A stretch of 64,000 nt of DNA from Calditrichaceae bacterium (GCA_013360445.1 JABWBP010000016.1:56404-120403), one strand, 5' to 3'. Counted from the first letter of the stretch, positions 2,889 through 52,310 are shown. The notes: generated by a model from the letters alone, not told the origin. A program made the numbers and translations.

Positions 2889-3956
2889 CTACGGTTCGGA
2901 TTTGAGATAATTGAGGATTTCCGCGCTGCTCTCGGCGGTAAGGACCATTTTCAAGGCCGCGTTCAATTTTTCGATGTCGGAAATCGAGCGGATAAGGGCT
3001 TTCCCGTCTTCATTCAACCCGAACCGGGCAATTAGAAGCATGATCAATACATCCTGTTTATCCAATATGTAACCTTCTTCACGTCCCTTTTCGATTCCCT
3101 TTTCGATTCCCTTTTCGATTCCCTTTTCGATTCCTTTCTCGATTCCTTTTTTGATTCCTTCCTCTACCCCTTCTTTTCTCCAACGCTGGGCTAAAGTGGG
3201 CATAATATCTTCTCCTTCAATTTCACTCTCTTCCAGGATTTTGACTAACTGCTTCGGGGGAATGTCCCGCGTCTCCGCAATGTAAATCAGCAAAAAGTTA
3301 ACCTGATCTTTTTGCTCGATCAAGCCCATTTTGTTCCATAACCGCACCACCTGCCGGATGGTCTCTAAATCCTTGCGGTAAGCGCCTTTCATCAACAACA
3401 TGGCCGAGAGCAGGAATACGTTCTCTTTTAGAGGGCGGCTGCTTTCTGCCTGCCAATCCCAACGGTTGGCGTCGAAGAAGAGGTATTCAAAATTGAGCAG
3501 GAAGCGCCGCAACTCTTTGCCAACCTCGAACTGTTCCACAAATTGGGTGGGCAGTTTCCAGCGGCCTTTGCCGTGATAAAAGACCAGCGGAATAATCGCC
3601 CGGAGCGGTTTTCCTTCCGCGCTGTCTTTCTGCCACATCAAATACATGTAGCGCAGCAGTTGCATGAAGATCCTTTTATCCGGGTAGGATTTGTGCTCGA
3701 AGAGCAGATAGACGTCCAGCGGATTCTGCCGCCCTTTGGCAGCGCATTTTACCACCACATCGGACAGGGAGGCTTTGTATTCCTCCGAAACGTAGGAAGT
3801 GGTATCCAACTCCAGGGCGCCAAGATCCAGTTGCCAGCGCATTTCTTCCGGCAGGGCGATTTCTAAGAAAGTTTTCACGTTGGCGACGTCGGAGAAAACC
3901 TTCTTGAAAAAATTGTCGTGGACGTTTTCGATCTTGGCCATGGTCGGCTCGCTCAA
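2889..3956 (-). CDS. Rpn family recombination-promoting nuclease / putative transposase (YhgA-like, PD-(D/E)XK)
   Basis: 355 aa. Length and N-terminal block (DNFFKKVFSD, LLFEHKSYPD) resemble the YhgA/Rpn family. The C-terminal region carries the (GIEKG)x6 repeat often seen in this family. Confidence 0.65.
   Translation of the reverse strand: MSEPTMAKIENVHDNFFKKVFSDVANVKTFLEIALPEEMRWQLDLGALELDTTSYVSEEYKASLSDVVVKCAAKGRQNPLDVYLLFEHKSYPDKRIFMQLLRYMYLMWQKDSAEGKPLRAIIPLVFYHGKGRWKLPTQFVEQFEVGKELRRFLLNFEYLFFDANRWDWQAESSRPLKENVFLLSAMLLMKGAYRKDLETIRQVVRLWNKMGLIEQKDQVNFLLIYIAETRDIPPKQLVKILEESEIEGEDIMPTLAQRWRKEGVEEGIKKGIEKGIEKGIEKGIEKGIEKGREEGYILDKQDVLIMLLIARFGLNEDGKALIRSISDIEKLNAALKMVLTAESSAEILNYLKSEP
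3085..3174. repeat. 15-bp tandem repeat (cccttttcgattcc-type) x6 inside the Rpn gene, encoding GIEKG x6
   Basis: Near-perfect tandem copies are visible directly in the sequence. Confidence 0.9.
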
Positions 3957-3982: not shown

Positions 3983-6220
3983 TTATTCCACCACCCGCAA
4001 ATTGGCATATTCGGCGATCAATTTTTTCAATCCCCTGCTCTTGAAGAACACCGAGAGCCTGGTACCGGCGCTGCCACGCTCCACTCCTAAGATTTGCCCT
4101 CGCCCGAATTCTTCGTGGATTACCCAGTCGCCGATTTTGTAATCGGGATGATCCAGCATTTCCGAGGCATACGCGGATACTTCCCGGGGCGACTCCTGGA
4201 AACGAATGCGCTGCTGGCGGGATTTTCGGTGGTGGGAACCGAAATTATCATAGGTCTCTTCGTTTTTGTACTCTTCCGGGATTTCTTCTAAAAATTTGGA
4301 AGAAGTGTTGATGAACGATGCGCCGTAATCGTTTCCGCTGAAGCGCCGCCGCTGCCGCGCCCATACCAGGTAGAGGCGGTCCTTGGCCCGGGTCATGCCC
4401 ACGTAAAAAAGCCGGCGCTCCTCTTCTAAGTCATCCGGGTTGCCGAAGGTGCGGGAGAGCGGGAATAACCCCTGTTCCAGCCCGCAAATAATCACCACCG
4501 GGAATTCCAGCCCCTTGGCGCTGTGCAGGGTCATTAGGGTGACCGCGGAAAAGCTGGGGTCCCAACGGTCCACGTCGGTGAGCAGGGAAACATCCTCTAA
4601 ATATTTTTCCAGGGTCGCCTCCCCGGGAAATTCCCCGGCTGCCGCGCCCCGCGTTTCGGTAAAGCTGGCGATGCTGTTCAGCAACTCATTGATGTTTTCT
4701 AACCGCGCTTCATCATCCGGCAGGCCGCTAAGCTCGTAGGGGCTTCTCAAAGCAAAGGTTTTCAGCACCCCGGCGGCGATTTCAAAGGCGCTGGCTGTGC
4801 TCGACTGCCTGCGGAAATCTTCCAGGGTATTCACGAAAGAACGAATTTTATCCTTGATTCCGGCGGATAAATCGTCGATTGCCGAGACATTCATCAACGC
4901 CTGGTACAGCCCGGTTTGCTGCTCCGCGGCGTACTGCTCCAATTTTTGCTGGGTAGCCATCCCAATGCCCCGGGCGGGGTAATTGATGATCCGCCGCAGC
5001 GCCACGGCGTCGCGAGGGTTGACGATCACCCGCAGGTAGGCCAGCACGTCTTTGATCTCCTTGCGCTCGTAAAAGCGCGTGCCGCCGACAATGACGTAGG
5101 GAATATTGGCCCGGCGCAGCTTGTCTTCTAAGGCGCGCGACTGGGCGTTGGTGCGGTAGAGCAGCGCAATGTCATTATAGGAAAGCTGATTCTTCGCCAT
5201 CTCGCTGCGGATGATATTGGCCGCTTCTAACCCTTCCCCGCCCTCGTCGGCGGCGCCGACCACGCGGATTTTTTCCCCCCCGCTTTTAAGGCTCCAGAGG
5301 TTTTTGCCCAACCGCTTCTGGTTATTGCTGACCACGGAGTTGGCCGCGCTCAGGATAACCTGGGTGGAGCGGTAGTTTTGTTCCAGCCGCACGACTTCGC
5401 AATCCGGATAATCTTTTTCAAAGCTGAGGATATTTTCGATATCCGCACCGCGCCAGCGGTAGATGCTCTGATCCTCATCGCCGACCACGCAGATGTTGCG
5501 GTGTTTCCCGGAGAGCTGCCGCACCAGGTAATACTGCGCTTTGTTGGTGTCCTGGTATTCGTCCACCAGGATATATTTGAATTTGGATTGGTATTTTTCC
5601 AGGATGGCCGGTTCTTTGGTGAACAAATCCAGGGGTTTGATCAGCAGGTCGTCGAAATCGAAAGCGTTATTGCGGCGCAGGGCGGTTTCGTATTCCCAAT
5701 AAATTTTGGCGATCTGCCGCTCCGCCAGGGTGCCGGCGCGGCGTTCGTATTGCTCCGGCCCGAACATTTTATTCTTACAGTCGCTGATGGCGTACTGCGC
5801 CTGGCGGGGTTTGAGGATGCTCTGGTTGATATTCAACCCCTCCATCACCTGCTGGATCTGGCGCAACTGGTCGTCCTGGTCATAAATTGTGAAATTGCTG
5901 TCGTAGCCTAAGTGCGCCCCCTCGATGCGCAGGATTCGAGCGCACACAGAATGAAAGGTGCCGATCCACATCCCCTCGATGGGAAATTGGAGCAGATTTT
6001 CCACCCGGCGCTTCATCTCATTCGCGGCCTTGTTGGTGAAAGTCACCGCTAAAATTTCGTACGGGCGCACGATGCGCTGCTCCAACAGATAACCGATCCG
6101 GTAGGTAAGCACCCGGGTTTTACCGCTGCCTGCCCCGGCCAGGATCAGCAAGGGACCGTTGATATGTTCCACCGCGCTGCGCTGCGCGGGATTGAGATCG
6201 TATAGGAGTTTAGAAGGCAT
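3983..6220 (-). CDS. uvrD: ATP-dependent DNA helicase UvrD/PcrA family
   Basis: Walker A (AGAGSGKTRVLTYRIGYLL). Helicase motifs (ILAVTFTNKAANEMKRR, DEYQDTN, VGDEDQSIYRWRGA, QNYRST). C-terminal UvrD tudor-like tail. Start placed at the internal MPSKLLYDLNPAQRSAV rather than the ORF-track start at 6328. Confidence 0.9.
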   Translation of the reverse strand: MPSKLLYDLNPAQRSAVEHINGPLLILAGAGSGKTRVLTYRIGYLLEQRIVRPYEILAVTFTNKAANEMKRRVENLLQFPIEGMWIGTFHSVCARILRIEGAHLGYDSNFTIYDQDDQLRQIQQVMEGLNINQSILKPRQAQYAISDCKNKMFGPEQYERRAGTLAERQIAKIYWEYETALRRNNAFDFDDLLIKPLDLFTKEPAILEKYQSKFKYILVDEYQDTNKAQYYLVRQLSGKHRNICVVGDEDQSIYRWRGADIENILSFEKDYPDCEVVRLEQNYRSTQVILSAANSVVSNNQKRLGKNLWSLKSGGEKIRVVGAADEGGEGLEAANIIRSEMAKNQLSYNDIALLYRTNAQSRALEDKLRRANIPYVIVGGTRFYERKEIKDVLAYLRVIVNPRDAVALRRIINYPARGIGMATQQKLEQYAAEQQTGLYQALMNVSAIDDLSAGIKDKIRSFVNTLEDFRRQSSTASAFEIAAGVLKTFALRSPYELSGLPDDEARLENINELLNSIASFTETRGAAAGEFPGEATLEKYLEDVSLLTDVDRWDPSFSAVTLMTLHSAKGLEFPVVIICGLEQGLFPLSRTFGNPDDLEEERRLFYVGMTRAKDRLYLVWARQRRRFSGNDYGASFINTSSKFLEEIPEEYKNEETYDNFGSHHRKSRQQRIRFQESPREVSAYASEMLDHPDYKIGDWVIHEEFGRGQILGVERGSAGTRLSVFFKSRGLKKLIAEYANLRVVE

Positions 6221-6254
6221 TCCTTTTGCCGGGTATAGCGATTGTTTTTTTTGA

Positions 6255-6328
6255 CAGCCGGTGATTCCGGATACCGGATACCTTCTTTTCCTGGTCCCTG
6301 GCATCCGGAATCCGGTATCTGGTATCAT
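6255..6328. repeat. Imperfect inverted repeat (TCCGGATACCGG / CCGGAATCCGGTATC) in the 5' leader of uvrD
   Basis: Seen in sequence at 6264-6282 and 6301-6326. Possible regulatory hairpin. Confidence 0.25.
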
Positions 6329-6391
6329 TATTTAAAAACCGCGCCCAATTTATCGACAAAACCCGGCTAATGAAAGACGAAATGTAACTAT

Positions 6392-7465: not shown

Positions 7466-7537
7466 GCTTCCTCCTAACAGGTTTTGTATCTATTCAGGCT
7501 GGTTGCTTAGCGTAAGAAGAATAAGGGCAAAATAGGG

Positions 7538-7590
7538 ATGACTATGCCATGGGCTGAATAGTAAGGGCTTTCGCCCTTTTTATTGTACCA
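7538..7590. repeat. Fragment resembling the right arm of the MITE-like element at 12829-12950, followed by a small hairpin with T-run
   Basis: ATGAC...TGGGCTGAATAGTAAGGGC matches ATATGACCTCTGTGGCTGAATAGTAACCCG at 12924-12953. Followed by AGGGCTTTCGCCCTTTTTATT. Confidence 0.3.
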
Positions 7591-7804
7591 CTGAACGCTA
7601 ATGTGTTTCAATAACTCTGTGCGCTCAGTCGGGTACATTATTTTTTTCTGGCTCCCTAACCACCAGGCATTTAATACCTTCAAAAATTCTCCGCCATTTC
7701 TCACTCCCCATTTGAATTTCTTTCCGTTATATTACCACCGTTCATCGAATGCGCTGTATCGACCACGATGAGTTGCCGTTTCAATCATACCGGGTTGCGC
7801 TTGT

Positions 7805-11881: not shown

Positions 11882-11953
11882 CTGGCGCTCTAAAATCAGT
11901 ACTTTACCTTTCATGCTTTCACATTAAGGCAGGTAAGGTTGTGATGGGGTGAT

Positions 11954-11993
11954 GGAGTATTGGAGTATTGGAGTATTGGAGTATTGGAGTATT
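11954..11993. repeat. Tandem octamer (GGAGTATT)x5
   Basis: Perfect tandem copies between the kinase stop and the regulator start. Confidence 0.9.
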
Positions 11994-12056
11994 GAATGGA
12001 TTGTTAAAGGATTGAAAAATCGGCAGTCTCCCTCAACAAGAGGACTACCGAAAAAC

Positions 12057-12115
12057 CCATTAATCCAGTCATCCATTAATCCATCACTCCATTAATCCAA
12101 CACTACATTAATCCG
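12057..12115. repeat. Interspersed CCATTAATCC / CCAACACT motifs (x4), related to the copy at 23588-23625
   Basis: ACTCCATTAATCCAACACT is shared with 23588-23625. Confidence 0.5.
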
Positions 12116-12142: not shown

Positions 12143-12766
12143 ATGATCACCGTTTCGATTGTAGAAGATGACCCGGATATCCGGGAAAGTTTGGCGCTGT
12201 TGATCAACGGGACGCCCGGCTATGCCTGTATCGGCGCTTATCCTAATTGCGAAAAAGGCATCAAGGGGATTTTGAAAGATCCGCCCGACGTGGTATTGAT
12301 GGACATCGGCCTGCCGGGAATGTCCGGCATCGAAGGCATCAAAATCCTGAAAGAGAAAATGCCGGAGTTGGACATTCTGGTGTTGACCATTCAGAGCGAT
12401 GACCGGGTGGTGTTCCAGGCGCTCTGCGCCGGGGCGTGCGGCTATTTGGTGAAAGATACGCCCCCGGCCCGGCTCCTGGAGGCCATCCGGGAATCTTACG
12501 ACGGCGGTGCGCCCATGAGCACCCGCATCGCCCGCATGGTGGTGGAATCTTTCCGGGTTACCCCGGAAACCTCCCTCACCCAGCGGGAAACGGAAGTGCT
12601 GACCCATTTGTGCAAGGGGCAGAGTTACAAAACCATCGCCGATGAGCTATTTATCAGCGAAGAAACGGTGCGGCGGCACATCAAGAATATCTATCGCAAG
12701 TTAGAGGTTCACTCCAAGTCCGAAGCGGTGGCCAAGGCGTTCAAAGAGAAACTGGTGAGCCTGTAA
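12143..12766 (+). CDS. NarL/FixJ-family response regulator (REC + LuxR-type HTH)
   Basis: REC domain with conserved Asp (VVLMDIGLPGMSG). C-terminal LuxR HTH (LTQRETEVLTHLCKGQSYKTIADELFISEETVRRHIKNIYRKL). Cognate to the HisKA_3 kinase upstream. Confidence 0.9.
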   Translation: MITVSIVEDDPDIRESLALLINGTPGYACIGAYPNCEKGIKGILKDPPDVVLMDIGLPGMSGIEGIKILKEKMPELDILVLTIQSDDRVVFQALCAGACGYLVKDTPPARLLEAIRESYDGGAPMSTRIARMVVESFRVTPETSLTQRETEVLTHLCKGQSYKTIADELFISEETVRRHIKNIYRKLEVHSKSEAVAKAFKEKLVSL

Positions 12767-12828
12767 GGCGTAGAGACCTTATCGTTCTGCATTTTTTTCT
12801 TGTATCTTGCGAATTATCATCCGAAATC

Positions 12829-12950
12829 GTAACTATTCAGGTTTTTTGCCACAGAGTTCACAGAGAGCACAGAGATATGGAAAAGTGCGTTAAACAAACC
12901 CCTTTAGTAGAAAAAAATGTTCCATATGACCTCTGTGGCTGAATAGTAAC
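12829..12950. mobile_element. MITE-like element (122 bp) with 12-bp terminal inverted repeats and an 8-bp target-site duplication
   Basis: TIRs are GTAACTATTCAG (12829-12840) and CTGAATAGTAAC (12939-12950), with 1 mismatch. The internal arms CCACAGAG...CCTCTGTGG are also inverted. Flanking direct repeat CCGAAATC at 12821-12828 and 12951-12958. A partial second copy lies at 25724-25771. Confidence 0.5.
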
Positions 12951-13113
12951 CCGAAATCTTAACCTCTTTGGCGCCGGTATTTCACGATAAATTTATGAGG
13001 AAAAGCCTGAGCGGAAAGGAAATGCCGAGATCATTGCGACGGCCGGTTATGGCGAACGTTGGGCGGCACAGGAACTTATAGAAACTGGTTGTATCATCGT
13101 CTTCCGACCCTCA

Positions 13114-13241: not shown

Positions 13242-15980
13242 ATGACGCATAGAATTTGGCACACTTCAAGCATAGCAGATGTTGTTCAGGCGCTTGATGT
13301 TGATTTGAGCAATGGCTTGAGCGATGCCGAGGCAGCAAATCGCCGGAGCCAGTACGGCCCAAACGAACTGCAAGAACGGGGCGGCATCTCCCCTATACGA
13401 CTGTTGTGGGCGCAATTCACCAACAATATGGTGCTGATCCTCATCGCTGCCGCCGTGGTTTCCGGCTTTCTGGGCAAGGTCACGGAAACGGCTGCGATTG
13501 CGGCTATTGTTGTGCTTTTTGCCTTGCTGGGTTTTGTGCAGGAGTACCGAGCCGAGCGGGCGATGGCTGCCCTTAAGCGGCTGACCGTGCCGGTGGTGCG
13601 TGCCCGCCGAAATGGCGAACTCCGTGAACTTTCGGCTAAGGAATTGGTGCCCGGTGATGTGGTACTGCTGGAGGCGGGTAACTCCATCCCCGCCGATATG
13701 CGGCTGGTGGAGAGCGTTAATCTGCGCATCCAGGAAGCGGCGCTGACCGGGGAGTCGGAGCCGGTAGAGAAGCATGTGGCCCCCCTACCCGGCGAGGAGG
13801 TGAGCCTTGGCGACCGGCGCAACATGGCTTACATGGGCACAGTCGCTACCTACGGGCGCGGTACAGCCGTGGTAACCGCCACCGGTATGAACACCGAGTT
13901 GGGCAAAATCGCCACCCTGTTGCAATCAGTCGAAACGGGCATGACACCCCTGCAACAGCGGCTGGATCAGGTAGGCAAGCTGTTGGCTATTGGTGGTATC
14001 ATCGTGGCGGCACTGGTGATGGTCATTGGGCTTTGGCGTGGAGAGTCACTACAGGAGATGTTTTTAACGGCCGTTTCCGTAGCTGTGGCAGTGGTACCAG
14101 AAGGGTTACCTGCCGTAGTCACCGTTACCCTCGCGTTAGGCGCCCAGCGCATGTTGCGCCGCCGTGCGCTTATCCGCAAGCTGCCTGCCGTGGAAACCCT
14201 CGGCTCCGTCACCACCATCTGCTCCGATAAAACAGGCACGCTTACCGAAAATCGCATGACGGTCACCGTCATCGATGTAGCCGGACATTTCTTGGATCTG
14301 CAGGAAACGGCGCGCCATCCTTCCGTAGTACTCCGTTTGCCGGATGCCGGCCCGGATTTTCTGGACAGCCAGCCGCCGGAAATTGGACTGGCGCTGGCCG
14401 CCGGGACGCTCTGCAACGACGCTTCCCTTCGCCCTGACCCGCACACCGGGCGCTATTTGGCCCTGGGCGACCCCACCGAAGGGGCCTTGCTGGTGGCTGC
14501 CTCAGAGGCTGGCCTGCGCAAGAGCGCGTTGGAAGCTGTGGTCCCGCGGGTGTCCGAATTGCCGTTTGACGCTGACCGTAAACGCATGACCACGGTCCAC
14601 CGTCTGCCGGATCACTCTGCTCAACTGCCCGTAGCCCTGCGCGCGCTTACGGATGCCTCAACCCCGTTCGTTGCCTTCACCAAGGGAGCAGTGGACAGCC
14701 TGCTGCCGCTTTGCCGAGCTATCTGGCTGAATGGTATGGTCGTTCCCATAGATGATCACTGGCAACAACGGATTGAACTGGCTAACGACCGGATGGCACA
14801 AAACGGGATGCGAGTGCTGGGATTGGCCCTGCGCTGGCAATCCGACCCTGCGCCGGTGGAAGATGACCTTATCTTTATTGGTCTGACAGGGATGATTGAC
14901 CCACCACGACCGGAAGTAAAAATGGCCGTGGCCACCTGCAAAGCCGCAGGTATTCGCCCCATCATGATCACCGGCGACCATCCTCTGACAGCCCGTTTTA
15001 TTGCCCACGACCTGGGCATCATCGACAATATACGTGTCAAAACGGGGCAGGATTTGAGCCGCATGTCCCCGGAAGAGCTGGCGGCAATCGTGCGCGAGGT
15101 ATCGGTTTATGCCCGGGTAACGCCGGAGCACAAGCTGCGCATCGTTGAAGCGCTGCAGGCGCAGAATCAGGTGGTGGCCATGACCGGCGACGGCGTCAAC
15201 GACTCGCCGGCGCTGCGCAAAGCCGACATCGGCATCGCGATGGGCATTACCGGCACCGACGTTTCCAAGGAAGCGTCCGAAATGGTGCTGCTGGACGACA
15301 ACTTTGCCACCATTGTGTCGGCGGTGGAGGAAGGGCGAGCCATCTACGACAACATTCGCCGCTTTGTGAAGTTTTCGATTGCGGGCAACGTCGGCAAGGT
15401 GCTGGTCATGCTGCTGGCGCCAGTGGTGGGCATCAATGTAGCCCTGCTTCCGTTGCAGTTGCTATGGCTAAACCTCCTCACCGATGGTCTGCTGGGGTTG
15501 GGGCTGGGCGTAGAACCGGCTGAACCCCAAACGATGAAACGGCCGCCCCGTGCGCCGCAGGAAAGTCTCTTCAGTGGCGGGCTGACGCAGCACGTTATCT
15601 GGGTTGGGCTGATGATTGGCTTCTTGGGGCTTGGTGTGGGGGCGCTGTATTACGACGTTGACAATCCGGCCGACAATCGCTGGCAGACGATGATTTTCAC
15701 CTCGCTGGCCTTTATGCAGATGGGACAGGCGGTGGCCTCTCGCTCGACACAGGAATCTTTTGTTTCGCTGGGACTATGGTCTAATCCGGTTCTGTTAGGA
15801 CTGGTGGTGATAACGGCCGTACTCCAGCTCATCGTCCTCTACGTGCCCTTCCTCGACCAGTTCTTCCAGATTACGCCGCTCAGGGCCGGCGACTTGCTGT
15901 TATGTGTGGCGCTGGGCATAGCGATACTGCTGCTGATTGAAGTTGAAAAAGCCCGGCTGCGCCGCAGTGAGGCTGCATGA
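13242..15980 (+). CDS. Cation-transporting P-type ATPase, type IIA (Ca2+-ATPase-like)
   Basis: Phosphorylation motif [17 protein letters not shown] (LTGESEPV). Nucleotide-binding and hinge motifs ([34 protein letters not shown]). 912 aa with N-terminal cation-ATPase-N domain. Confidence 0.9.
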
Positions 15981-23534: not shown

Positions 23535-23587
23535 ATTGTTTGACCGAATACAGATGATGAAGTGACCCCCCTAAGGGGTTTGCAATA

Positions 23588-23625
23588 TCCAACACTCCAA
23601 CAATCCATTACTCCATTAATCCCCT
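23588..23625. repeat. ATCCAACACTCCAACAATCCATTACTCCATTAATCC repeat, same family as 12057-12115
   Basis: Shares ACTCCATTAATCC and CCAACACT with 12057-12115. Lies between the ROK kinase stop and the ABC ATPase start. Confidence 0.4.
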
Positions 23626-23628
23626 ACC

Positions 23629-24498
23629 CTAAACCCCAGCGCCCTCGCTCCCACCCTCCATCGCCAGGGCGATCGCTCCTATCAGCGCGGAGTCGTATCC
23701 CAACCGGCTGAGCCGCACCTGCGGGGCGGGAACGATTTTCAAATGCGCGTGCAGGGTTGCCCGGGCCGGGCGGAGCAGTTTTTCCCCCGCGCCGACGGCC
23801 ACGCCCCCGCCTAATACGATCACCTCCGGGGCATAGAGCGTGGCTAAATTGCGCAATCCCTGGCCAAGGTTATAGCCCACTTCCTCCCACTCCTCTTCCG
23901 TTAGCTTTTCCGCCGGTTTTCCGTAAATGCGCCGGATACCGTTGCCGGAAACCAGCGCCTCCAGACAATCCCGCGCCCCGCACTCGCACTGCACCCGCTC
24001 CGGGCGGGCGCAGCAAAAATGGATCGACTGGTGTCCCGCCTCCTGGTGAACCCCGCCGGCCCCGCGGTAAATTTTCCCGTCGATCAAAAATCCCCCGCCC
24101 ATGCCGGTGCTGAGGGTGAGATACAACAATCGAGAGGCGGTTTCCTTGCCGAATTTGTATTCGCCTAACGCTGCAACGTTGGTATCCACGTCCACGACAA
24201 AATGGCAGCGGAATTGGGTTTCCATAATGTTTTTCAGGGGCACGCTGCGCCATTGGGGCTGGTGCAGGGGAGAAACCACCCCGCTATTATGCTCCAACGG
24301 CCCGCCAATCGCCGCCCCGATGGCAATGATGCGGTTATTCTCCCGGAGCCGCGCCGCCAATTTTTTGAGCAGGCTTAAACCCTCCTGCAGATCGAGGGGC
24401 GTGTCCGCCCGCAAACGCCGCAGGATTTCGCCGCCCTCGTTGGCGGCTGCGGCCATAATTTTGGTTCCCCCAATATCCAGGCCGATGAGAATATTCAT
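23629..24498 (-). CDS. ROK family sugar kinase (glucokinase-like)
   Basis: N-terminal LIGLDIGGTKI ATP-binding motif. ROK zinc motif HxxCxCGxxGCxE (HFCCARPERVQCECGARDCLEA). Confidence 0.8.
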   Translation of the reverse strand: MNILIGLDIGGTKIMAAAANEGGEILRRLRADTPLDLQEGLSLLKKLAARLRENNRIIAIGAAIGGPLEHNSGVVSPLHQPQWRSVPLKNIMETQFRCHFVVDVDTNVAALGEYKFGKETASRLLYLTLSTGMGGGFLIDGKIYRGAGGVHQEAGHQSIHFCCARPERVQCECGARDCLEALVSGNGIRRIYGKPAEKLTEEEWEEVGYNLGQGLRNLATLYAPEVIVLGGGVAVGAGEKLLRPARATLHAHLKIVPAPQVRLSRLGYDSALIGAIALAMEGGSEGAGV

Positions 24499-25512: not shown

Positions 25513-25723
25513 AGTTTTTGTTTGGTTATTGGTGGTTAGTGGTCAATCAATGTCGTTAAGTTGAGGCGTGGTCATAATTATCCGGTAGCGAAATCAAGGA
25601 GATTCCGGCATTCGCCGGAATGACAGTCGCCGACCTTGTCACTCCTGCTTCAAAGGAGTCACTTCGTGACGAATGCAGGAGTCTCCCGCTAAAAGCCAAC
25701 CCTTTGTTTATTAAAGAATCGGA

Positions 25724-25771
25724 GTAACTATTCAGGCGTTTTGCCACAGAGGCCACAGAGAGCACAGAGAC
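25724..25771. repeat. Partial copy (left arm) of the MITE-like element at 12829-12950
   Basis: GTAACTATTCAGGCGTTTTGCCACAGAGGCCACAGAGAGCACAGAGACAT matches 12829-12877 with few mismatches. No right arm is present. The region 25600-25700 also carries several short hairpins (e.g. ATTCCGG-N6-CCGGAAT). Confidence 0.45.
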
Positions 25772-25852
25772 ATAAAAAAATTCCTAATCAAATCACAAAT
25801 ACAGGGATATAAGGCTCTAAATCGGAATTATGACCACGTATCAACTAATTAA

Positions 25853-35811: not shown

Positions 35812-36050
35812 GTTAAACCGGGAGGGTTTAATCCCGACAAATTCACAGGGAAGTGAATGTAGTTGTCGGGAGGGCGGGAGCAGGGGCAGTTGGCAGGAGC
35901 AGGGGCAGGAGCAGGGGCAGGGAGCAGGGGCAGGGAGCAAGAGCAGGGGCAGGGAGAGACCAGGTGAGGAGTTGAAATTGCCTATTGCCTACTGCCACCT
36001 GCCTATTGCCTACTGCCACCTGCCAACTGCCCCTGCTCCTGCCTACTGCT
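35812..36050. repeat. Composite repeat: hairpin CCCGACAA/TTGTCGGG, tandem (GGAGCAGGGGCAG)x6, tandem TGCCTATTGCCTACTGCCACC x2, flanked by 27-bp inverted arms
   Basis: GGGGCAGTTGGCAGGAGCAGGGGCAGG (35883-35909) is the reverse complement of CCTGCCAACTGCCCCTGCTCCTGCC (36020-36044). ORF 35708-36073 is a translation artefact of these repeats. Confidence 0.7.
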
Positions 36051-42619: not shown

Positions 42620-42680
42620 AAAGTGAAACGTGAAGCGTGAAACGTGATTTCACGCTTCACGTTTTACGTTTCACGCCTTA
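42620..42680. terminator. Bidirectional hairpin (AAACGTGAAGCGTGAAACGTGATTTCACGCTTCACGTTT) between convergent genes
   Basis: 17-bp perfect arms. Lies between the stop codons of 40555-42588 (+) and 42686-43618 (-). Member of the CGTGAAACG palindrome family. Confidence 0.55.
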
Positions 42681-44383: not shown

Positions 44384-44500
44384 GCAGTAGGCAGTAGGCA
44401 ATAGGCAGTAACCAGCAGCAGTGGGCAATAAACAGGAGCAAGGTTAAGAGGGTGAAGGTAAAATTGCTTACTGCTTACTGCCTACTCCCTACTCCCTCCG
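44384..44500. repeat. Inverted arms CAGTAGGCAGTAGGCAATAGGCAGTAA ... TTGCTTACTGCTTACTGCCTACTCCCTACTCCC (same family as 35970-36020)
   Basis: GGCAGTAGGCAATAGGCA is the reverse complement of TGCCTATTGCCTACTGCC at 35980-36020. A related GTAGGCGATAGGCAGTTGGCA lies at 51125-51150. Confidence 0.55.
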
Positions 44501-44508
44501 GCAACTCG

Positions 44509-49957: not shown

Positions 49958-49972
49958 AGCTGAAGCGGGAGG

Positions 49973-50037
49973 CGTGAAACGTAAAACGTGATGCGTGAAG
50001 AATTGCGAACGGCGGTTTACGTTTCACGCATCACGTG
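49973..50037. terminator. Bidirectional hairpin ACGTGATGCGTGAA ... TTCACGCATCACGT between convergent genes
   Basis: 14-bp perfect stem. Additional pairing GTGAAACGTAAA/TTTACGTTTCAC. Lies between the stops of the GYD gene (+) and ltaE (-). CGTGAAACG family. Confidence 0.55.
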
Positions 50038-51678: not shown

Positions 51679-52218
51679 TCAACTTTTCAGCACCGCCAGG
51701 GGGCGAACCCGCGCGACCGCCCTGGCAATGCGGAACTGCTGCATCACCCGCAGCACGTTGTCAATATCCTTGAGGGCGTCCGGGGCCTGCTCGCTGATGT
51801 GATCCTTCCCGTAGCGGTAGAGCCGGATGCCGCGTCGTTGCATGGTCGCCTCGCGTTTTTCGTTCAATAGTTGGCGCACGTTCAGGCGGCAGAACAGGGC
51901 CATGTTTTTTGCGCGAATGAGATCGCTCCACAACAGGCCGCCCCGCACCCGGAACAACCGTTTGCCTACCTGAACGGCTTCGGGGTCTTCCGCCCGCCGC
52001 AGCAGGGGGAATTCCTTCCCTTCCGCTTCCCACAGGTTGATGGAAATGCAAATCTCCGCCTCGCCGGGATGGCGCTCCGCTACTAACGGCCGGGCGTGTT
52101 CCGCAATTTGTTCCAGCAGCGGCGCGTGGTTGCAGCGGATTTCTACCCTGGTCTGGTTGGACTCGACGTGGAGGGTAAGGTCATTTATGGTCATTTGCTG
52201 CGCGTCATTTATGGTCAT
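51679..52218 (-). CDS. Hypothetical protein (no recognised family)
   Basis: 179-aa ORF with coding-like composition. The N-terminal MTINDAQQMTIND is derived from the GTCATT repeat array, so the true start is uncertain (possibly 52194). Confidence 0.45.
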   Translation of the reverse strand: MTINDAQQMTINDLTLHVESNQTRVEIRCNHAPLLEQIAEHARPLVAERHPGEAEICISINLWEAEGKEFPLLRRAEDPEAVQVGKRLFRVRGGLLWSDLIRAKNMALFCRLNVRQLLNEKREATMQRRGIRLYRYGKDHISEQAPDALKDIDNVLRVMQQFRIARAVARVRPLAVLKS

Positions 52219-52310
52219 TTGGCTTCGCGGTCATTTATTGTCATTGGTTTCACAGTCATTTGTTGTCATTAGCGTTGCGTCATTGGTGGTCATTGGCTGC
52301 GCGTCATTCT
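52178..52310. repeat. Tandem about 24-bp repeat (TATGGTCATTTGCTGCGCGTCATT-like) x5.5; GTCATT half-site array
   Basis: Eleven GTCATT copies at 11-13 nt spacing. Same half-site family as 28005-28160 and 33133-33235, but without the central GC hairpin. Confidence 0.75.

Follow-up and report, generated by a model that had tools for sequence, protein, structure and literature searches.

A MITE-like element with 8-bp target-site duplications and CACAGAG arrays in uncultured Calditrichaceae

The element between the regulator and ATPase genes

The stretch of DNA analysed here, referred to as the window, comprises 64,000 nt from a Calditrichaceae bacterium (GCA_013360445.1, JABWBP010000016.1:56404-120403). 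In it the gene for a LuxR-type response regulator (12143-12766) is followed by that for a P-type cation ATPase (13242-15980), and a short element lies between the two, starting 62 nt past the stop codon of the former and ending 291 nt ahead of the start codon of the latter. The original prediction described this element as a miniature inverted-repeat transposable element (MITE)-like sequence with terminal inverted repeats and an 8-bp duplication. This is confirmed at 12829-12950, where the ends GTAACTATTCAG and CTGAATAGTAAC are flanked by CCGAAATC on both sides (Table 1). We conclude, with a probability of roughly 0.85, that the element is a copy of a non-autonomous MITE family in uncultured Calditrichaceae. 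Its predicted position between the two genes also holds, but not the designation of that position as a promoter region, as no promoter- or terminator-like consensus was found in or beside the element.

The terminal arms are complementary at 11 of 12 positions, with a fixed A/T asymmetry at position 3, and the pairing extends inward, with CCACAGAG (12849-12856) facing CTCTGTGG (12931-12938). Directly after the left terminal repeat comes an 8-nt spacer, GTTTTTTG, and then a subterminal array that reads CCACAGAGTTCACAGAGAGCACAGAGA, i.e. CCACAGAG TT CACAGAG AG CACAGAG A. A core of 55 nt separates this array from the one inverted unit that remains on the right arm. The pattern CACAGAGNNCACAGAG has five matches in the window where 0.13 are expected, and none of 100 shuffled sequences reached five. 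By our own estimate, an exact 8/8 flanking direct repeat would occur by chance at ∼1.5e-5 per site.

The length of 122 bp is as predicted, but it is that of an internally deleted copy. At the same site, the metagenome-assembled genome (MAG) GCA_023151135.1 (L001; L numbers designate loci fetched from other assemblies), a sister genome of the same species, carries a 163-bp element. L003 does likewise, and the contigs L029 and L030 also have the long form. The 41 bp missing from the window at 12926/12927, TACAAGAATAATGATTCTAAGAGTCTTAAATTCTTTCTCTG, include one CTCTGTG unit. Thus, the full element has at least two inverted units on its right arm, and the window copy is probably decaying.

Hairpins predicted on both strands of the element are more stable than those of shuffled controls (RNA, -33 and -43 kcal/mol; z = -3.0 and -3.9), and the DNA fold of the full 163-bp element gives z = -5.5. 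If transcription read through the element, the RNA between the regulator and ATPase genes would fold into a strong hairpin. Together with the finding that all examined copies are intergenic, this stability could indicate that the host uses the structure, e.g. as a terminator, a small RNA gene or a hairpin for RNase III or mRNA stability, and that the border repeats are incidental. We consider this highly improbable. No Rfam family (Rfam 15) matches the window at gathering thresholds, and in E-value mode (E up to 10) the best score was 14.5 bits against a threshold of 45. The lack of promoter- and terminator-like sites argues in the same direction. Across the copies, the dinucleotide spacers of one arm do not pair with those of the other and the conserved part is the heptamer, so the stem is not maintained by compensatory change. 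Moreover, the element has no fixed orientation with respect to its target motif, is missing from the orthologous spacers of relatives and is freely deleted or truncated. Any regulatory role of the element would be hypothetical.

Copies, target sites and host of the family

Scanning species-representative genomes with the pattern CTATTCAGN{0,8}CCACAGAGNNCACAGAG yielded at least 20 loci. Twelve copies were aligned, and a hidden Markov model (HMM) was built from the alignment. By the HMM, the window has two copies and no more (12829-12948 and 25724-25823), and ∼90 kb of syntenic sequence from relatives has none. Pattern and HMM scans place more than ten further loci on Calditrichaceae contigs. 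Additional copies are thus found at unrelated loci, on contigs that are labelled as Calditrichaceae or were traced to them (in the case of L024, probably).

All full-length copies end in a 12-nt terminal inverted repeat, GT(A/T)ACTATTCAG. The repeat is followed by a spacer, G(C/T)nTTTTG, on what we call the long arm, and has no spacer on the short arm. Each arm holds 1 to 6 CACAGAGnn units, which are inverted on opposite arms, and between the arrays lies one of two alternative cores: that of subfamily A (the 12829 type) or that of subfamily B (the 25724 type). The copies measure 122-216 bp, with full-length members of ∼160-215 bp. They are non-coding, and their reading frames are short and not conserved between copies. 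Some copies carry an optional insert of ∼33 nt inside either array (L011:4722-4754, L015, L018, L024, L122:2300-2335). Its core, CATGGTTCGATAAACTCACCATG, is itself a small palindrome, and the insert may be a smaller nested mobile unit or a deletion hotspot. The L018 variant (6193-6336) has the ends of the family but CACTAAGG/CACGAAGG units.

Target duplications are evidence of transposition (Table 1): 8-bp duplications are perfect at six independent sites and match at 7/8 positions at two more. As exact 8-mers recur at five independent sites beyond that of the window, local sequence duplication does not account for the repeat at 12829. The targets are A/T-rich, and AAATC or GATTT is present in five of the eight duplicated sites, in either orientation relative to the element. 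We infer a preference for A/T-rich targets with AAATC/GATTT.

An empty site is seen for the second window copy, which lies 12.9 kb from the first. The original prediction listed it as a half copy at 25724-25771. It is a real copy, but it extends to ∼25822 (∼100 nt) and belongs to the second subfamily. In a repeat search, 12829-12884 and 25724-25779 align with 88% identity over 56 nt. The copy retains its left inverted repeat and array, and its core as far as GGCTCTAAAT. The orthologous gltX-ddl spacer in a related Calditrichaceae MAG, GCA_964522165.1 (L031), and in the Logan contig L032 reads ...AAAGAATCGGAATTATGACC..., where GAATCGGA stands once and the element is missing. The window has ...AAAGAATCGGA[GTAACTATTCAGG...GGCTCTA]AATCGGAATTATGACC... 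at this position. L031 and L032 therefore represent a clean empty site for the insertion. The trinucleotide AAT is common to the truncation junction and the duplicated target, which would be explained if the element had inserted in full, with an 8-bp duplication, and a microhomology deletion had then removed its right part. Having lost its right end, the copy would be immobile. The same spacer also differs by a 22-nt indel at window positions 25649-25670 (TTCAAAGGAGTCACTTCGTGAC) relative to L031/L032, which puts a mini-hairpin into the loop of an existing CTCCTGC...GCAGGAG hairpin.

A related species (L033, L039) has no element at the 12829 site. Two other comparisons were discarded. The three ATPase homologues considered as an empty-site test for 12829 are 84-87% identical and lie in unrelated, non-syntenic gene contexts. 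At a candidate second empty site, upstream of wecG, the contigs of the relatives end in other repeats or differ in context.

Sequence identity between copies shows that the family has been recently active in Calditrichaceae. Subfamily A copies at different loci of the same species are 99.4% identical (L001_A and L011_A). The 25724 copy is 100% identical over 99 nt to the left part of the full-length B copies L011_B and L024_B. Copies in the other Calditrichaceae species are 79-89% identical to those of the window. Independent Logan assemblies break inside the element (L004, L029/L030, L124-L131), which is typical of multi-copy repeats.

Between strains, the elements vary by internal deletion, change in unit number and replacement of an end. 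One locus has one array unit in one strain and two in another, and the 33-nt insert is found in L122 but not in L011. L122 also has the right junction of L011_B but a different left end and left flank, so that one of the two must be rearranged. Two further joins lie close to the 12829 element. In another MAG (L041, 7600-7760), a deletion of ∼105 bp removes the stop codon of the regulator gene together with the left end of the MITE, giving a regulator of 224 aa. In L002 (860-1336), the sequence is different beyond GTTTTTTGCC and continues inside an unrelated lipoprotein-like open reading frame (ORF), identified by eye. Both joins are either real strain variants or assembly chimeras. The L002 contig was considered as a sighting of an autonomous element and rejected as a rearrangement or chimera into this ORF. 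Such artefact-like joins (the L002 junction and the regulator-element fusion of L041) might suggest that the element as a whole is an assembly artefact, or a chance palindrome beside a local duplication. We give this a negligible probability, and it is refuted by the presence of the same structure in independent NCBI, JGI and Logan assemblies and at unrelated loci that each have their own 8-bp duplication. The motif counts also exceed those of all shuffles.

The stretch at 7538-7565 had been predicted to be a fragment of the element, and this does not hold up. It pairs with a matching left arm at 7486-7497, but the family HMM does not detect anything at 7486-7565, no target duplication is seen there (2/8), and the left arm aligns to ATATTCAGG, which is present in relatives without the rest. 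Thus, it is doubtful as a MITE copy. The window at 7486-7650 and L041 carry ∼165 nt that are absent from the relatives L033, L034 and L039, including an end-like motif, CTGAATAGTAAG, and a degenerate CTCTGTG. This segment may be a very old, eroded insertion.

The proteins of the window have NCBI names of Calditrichaceae or Calditrichia bacterium, and the regulator protein is also found on L001 and on several Logan and JGI contigs. Copies with GTAAC-type ends come from MAGs labelled Calditrichaceae, 'Deltaproteobacteria PRO9', 'Brocadia sp. WS118' and 'Bdellovibrionales'. The locus of 'Deltaproteobacteria bacterium PRO9' (L040, WYBG01000072.1) encodes an identical regulator protein in the Calditrichaceae gene order. 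On 'Candidatus Brocadia sp. WS118' scaffold_211 (L011, PHFX01000102.1), the WecG protein is 99% identical to a Calditrichaceae protein, and the locus is also present in the Calditrichaceae MAGs GCA_023151135.1 and GCA_026648155.1. These findings show that the PRO9 MAG is mislabelled and that scaffold_211 represents a Calditrichaceae locus placed in the wrong bin. L024 (JAPKGD010000044.1), a 'Bdellovibrionales' contig that holds two MITEs in tandem, comes from the same study as GCA_026648155.1 and, judging from this sibling MAG, is likely misbinned as well. Transfer of the MITE across phyla was therefore rejected, for PRO9 and WS118 by their tracing to Calditrichaceae and for L024 by inference, and we treat the MITE as a family of uncultured Calditrichaceae (phylum Calditrichota). 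The element sequence has in this way helped to expose a mislabelled MAG and a misbinned contig. No match to the element was obtained by blastn against plasmid records. In viral contigs, searched for a phage vector or an autonomous copy, neither the element pattern nor a pattern of the ends without arrays had any match (0 each).

Table 1. Features in the window and target duplications of the family.
Feature	Position or locus	Strand	Basis or match
Left target-site duplication copy CCGAAATC	12821-12828	.	8/8 = 12951-12958, abuts element end
MITE copy, subfamily A, 122 bp	12829-12950	+	nhmmer E = 7.7e-31; long hairpin
Left terminal inverted repeat GTAACTATTCAG (long arm)	12829-12840	+	conserved in all aligned copies
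Subterminal array, 3 CACAGAGnn units, period 9 nt	12849-12875	+	motif count and alignment
Junction of 41-bp internal deletion	12926-12927	.	window vs L001 and L003
Sole remaining inverted unit of right arm CTCTGTGG	12931-12938	+	
Right terminal inverted repeat CTGAATAGTAAC (short arm, no spacer)	12939-12950	+	
Right target-site duplication copy CCGAAATC	12951-12958	.	8/8
Left target-site copy GAATCGGA, second insertion	25716-25723	.	empty site in L031/L032 reads AAAGAATCGGAATTATGACC
One-ended truncated MITE copy, subfamily B, ∼100 nt	25724-25822	+	nhmmer E = 3.5e-25
Right target-site copy AATCGGA, 7/8	25820-25826	.	overlaps truncation junction via AAT microhomology
Doubtful relative GTATCTATTCAGG ... 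GGCTGAATAGTAAG, no CACAGAG array	7486-7565	+	arms found
Target duplication CCGAAATC	window / L001		8/8
Target duplication GATTTTTA	L008		8/8
Target duplication AACTTTTT	L011 / L122		8/8
Target duplication AAAAAATC	L018		8/8
Target duplication GGTAAATC	L020		8/8
Target duplication CGATTTTT	L023		8/8
Target duplication AAATTTTA / AAATTTCA	L015		7/8
Target duplication GAAAAAGG / GAAAAACG	L018 variant		7/8

CACAGAG arrays and candidate transposases

That the element is non-autonomous and has no transposase nearby, as predicted, agrees with its lack of coding capacity and with the gene content around it. Pfam scans of the main ORFs of the 64-kb window found a single transposase-like ORF, a YhgA/Rpn-like 'Transposase_31' gene (PF04754, E = 1.8e-42; 2889-3956, minus strand). 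It lies ∼9 kb from the MITE, tightly packed between neighbouring genes and with no matching ends or inverted repeats, which leaves it without an evident link to the MITE. This gene contains a tandem repeat of eight in-frame copies of a 12-nt unit (3073-3168; CCCTTTTCGATT on the + strand). No transposase was found within 10 kb either side of the element in L001 or beside any copy in the fetched loci, where the adjoining genes are ordinary ones (tRNA synthetase, MFS transporter, methyltransferase, glycosyltransferase and others). Pairs of ends 0.5-5 kb apart enclosing a transposase gene were likewise absent from the fetched loci, nor does any pair of ends there bound a larger segment. The cognate transposase proposed in the original prediction was thus not found in the window, the fetched loci or the viral contigs.

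The prediction had named an IS630/Tc1 or IS5-like enzyme with 8-bp duplications. IS630/Tc1 elements make TA duplications and IS5-type elements 3-4 bp duplications, so the 8-bp duplications seen here make both poor candidates. A better match is IS66, whose inverted repeats of 20-30 bp start with GTAAGCG and whose direct repeats are 8 bp long (PMC11946415, citing Ross et al. 2021). Our best guess is that the GTAA termini and 8-bp duplications point to an IS66-like enzyme, as a lead only. The fetched DNA, made up of individual loci, contains no IS66 gene. In the mechanism that we envisage, a transposase encoded elsewhere in the genome would bind the terminal repeats, and possibly the heptamer arrays, and would cut the target with a stagger of 8 bp; the likeliest enzyme would be of the DDE type of the IS66 kind. 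An autonomous partner would have the ends GTAACTATTCAG ... CTGAATAGTTAC and flanking 8-bp duplications.

The heptamer arrays are not confined to the MITE. The remaining matches of the pattern scan lie in other phyla, on a 659-kb Methylophilaceae contig, a 2.7-Mb Chloroflexi contig, in Sulfuriferula, Burkholderiales, Brocadia carolinensis and others. They are hairpins of the form (CACAGAGnn)x2-3, loop, (nnCTCTGTG)x2-3, with no GTAAC ends, no second CTGAATAG and no duplications. The motif CTATTCAG was considered as a terminal repeat shared across phyla and rejected, since it is one-sided in other phyla. The motif agrees with the general T-rich...AGCC array junction, which explains these matches as variants selected by the pattern.

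Two fetched loci connect the arrays to a gene. In L013 (330-770), arrays enclose a gene for a 121-aa PDDEXK_3/GxxExxY protein (PF13366, E = 2.5e-40), and in L012 (3-402) a PDDEXK_3 gene abuts an array hairpin. With the L013 protein as query we collected 80 metagenomic loci (L042-L121; 62-73% identity), of which 74 could be scored by their flank. The query protein itself was found via the array pattern, and the homologues were picked by protein sequence alone. At least two exact CACAGAG units lie within 70 nt upstream of the PDDEXK_3 ATG in 53/74 loci, a number that rises to 62/74 when variant units are counted, and the last upstream unit mostly ends ∼7-20 nt ahead of the start codon. Downstream of the gene, inverted arrays were counted at 31 loci and additional direct arrays at 41. 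The array spacers are purine-rich on the sense strand, and the junction consensus is T-rich, (A/T)(A/G)GCC, ACAGAG. The 58 loci with enough upstream flank represent at least 45 distinct contexts across phyla. Where neighbours of the cassettes could be identified they are housekeeping genes, e.g. argD-argF, lysS and an oxidoreductase, and the brackets sometimes hold a second ORF of unknown function.

The PDDEXK_3 family is described as having unknown function and multiple horizontal transfers (Steczkiewicz et al., PMC3424549). The literature searched on GxxExxY/PDDEXK_3 yielded only listings as 'function unknown' and no description of array-PDDEXK_3 cassettes, and Rfam has no model for CACAGAG arrays. 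A heptamer array ahead of the start codon in at least 45 independent contexts provides a handle on the function of this nuclease and on the movement of its gene. We regard the association of arrays and PDDEXK_3 across phyla as a more unusual by-product of the analysis than the MITE itself.

The MITE core looks like a gene-less version of the PDDEXK_3 array module. This resemblance could mean that the element is a gene-less bracket of the cross-phylum cassette that spreads by the mechanism of the cassette, e.g. nuclease-triggered copying or recombination at the arrays, and not by a terminal-repeat transposase. Consistent with this, the same arrays and junction (T-rich, AGCC/TGCC, ACAGAG) precede PDDEXK_3 in most of the scored loci, the gene stands beside or within the hairpin in L012 and L013, and array hairpins with no ORF are seen in Methylophilaceae, Sulfuriferula, Burkholderiales, a deltaproteobacterial MAG and Brocadia carolinensis. 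In addition, the L018 variant has the same terminal repeats around another array type and unit number is variable, so that arrays and ends are separable modules. We nevertheless find the proposal improbable, because the Calditrichaceae copies have exact 8-bp duplications abutting their GTAAC ends at six sites, whereas the cassettes of other phyla, read by eye, have no flanking duplications. Furthermore, none of the 80 PDDEXK_3 loci has the MITE ends (GTAAC...CTATTCAG), and both the window and all fetched Calditrichaceae loci lack a PDDEXK_3 gene.

Speculatively, the heptamer arrays are a module that the element took from PDDEXK_3 cassettes or has in common with them, and they might serve as protein-binding or RNA-processing sites. 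A wider proposal, which we make tentatively and think less likely to be right than wrong, is that the CACAGAG arrays are the recognition or processing module of an uncharacterised cross-phylum cassette system. This system would bracket small accessory genes, chiefly PDDEXK_3/GxxExxY nucleases, between housekeeping genes, and the MITE would be a hybrid: a gene-less bracket under a conventional transposase with 8-bp duplications. If so, the arrays rather than the 12-nt ends could be the target of a dedicated protein or RNase.

Other intergenic arrays in the window have the architecture of the CACAGAG arrays with different unit sequences. Arrays of 7-12-nt units lie at 11937-11992, 12047-12114, 35873-36043, 44384-44502, 42649-42678 with 49970-49999, 52180-52308 and 23579-23630. 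Their units include TGGAGTAT, ATCCATTA, GCAGTAGG and TTCACGC, and several form inverted pairs. Relatives have further unit types ahead of genes, e.g. at L135:2440-2500. With so many short-unit arrays in inverted pairs, this build seems to be a general trait of these genomes.

Several observations weigh against the MITE interpretation or limit it. Three copies have no duplication (L011_B, L024_A and L024_B). In L011_B this is because the left flank has been replaced; L024_A and L024_B are adjacent copies, 7 nt apart. At 12829 no clean empty site is available, as the relative also lacks 28 nt of flank, and the exact empty allele had 0 matches when JGI metagenomes were scanned for it. Neither the window nor ∼370 kb of fetched loci nor the viral contigs yielded an autonomous partner with the same ends, which makes the transposase family a guess. 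The perfect terminal repeat is 12 nt long, and the ends begin with GTAAC, of which only GTAA matches the IS66 consensus. Copy numbers are counts on contigs. Finally, arrays in other phyla without terminal repeats or duplications imply that part of the element sequence has an origin or role other than transposition.

Taken together, we conclude that the 12829 element most probably belongs to a MITE family. No description of this family was found in the literature searched by full text, in Rfam or in plasmid records, and it appears to be previously undescribed. The element breaks short-read contigs, and strains differ at it by deletions, replaced ends and a gene fusion. In this way, it affects the genomes of these wastewater and bioreactor organisms in their structure and in how well they assemble.

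Comparison with known systems

The element is like other bacterial MITEs, such as Correia/NEMIS of Neisseria, RUP of Streptococcus pneumoniae and Nezha of cyanobacteria, in being short and non-coding, with terminal inverted repeats, a target duplication of fixed length, many intergenic copies, polymorphic insertions, a hairpin and no transposase of its own. It has no sequence similarity to these three. Correia and RUP duplicate TA, compared with the 8 bp seen here. It also differs from other MITEs in its build, with a true terminal repeat of 12 nt followed by arrays of 7-nt units, in being a mosaic of two interchangeable cores and nested mini-inserts, and in its host, an uncultured Calditrichota lineage.

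BOX elements of Streptococcus pneumoniae are modular, MITE-like intergenic repeats in which the copy number of an internal module varies. Their modules are ∼45-60 nt, however, compared with the 9-nt heptamer units found here; there is no sequence relation, and BOX has no defined 8-bp duplication.

REP/BIME elements, REPINs mobilised by RAYT and palindromes derived from IS200/IS605 are likewise intergenic, hairpin-forming and multi-copy. They are not known to make target duplications. Elements of these groups carry GTAG or CGTC tags or insert next to a fixed tetranucleotide (PMC3733652). The family described here has clean 8-bp duplications of varied sequence and neither tag, which places it outside both groups.

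IS66 shares the 8-bp direct repeats and inverted repeats beginning with GTAA (PMC11946415). The element differs in reading GTAACTATTCAG instead of GTAAGCG..., in the 12-nt length of its perfect repeat and in that no tnpA, tnpB or tnpC partner was found.

The closest likeness in the arrays is to the PDDEXK_3 CACAGAG cassettes, which have the same heptamer, 9-nt period, junction and inverted arrays, and which also occur as ORF-less hairpins. The cassettes differ in carrying an ORF, in having neither GTAAC repeats nor visible duplications and in their spread over many phyla, whereas the MITE is found on Calditrichaceae contigs only. The MITE has arrays on both arms but no ORF, and is thus not itself such a cassette; what the two have in common is the array module.

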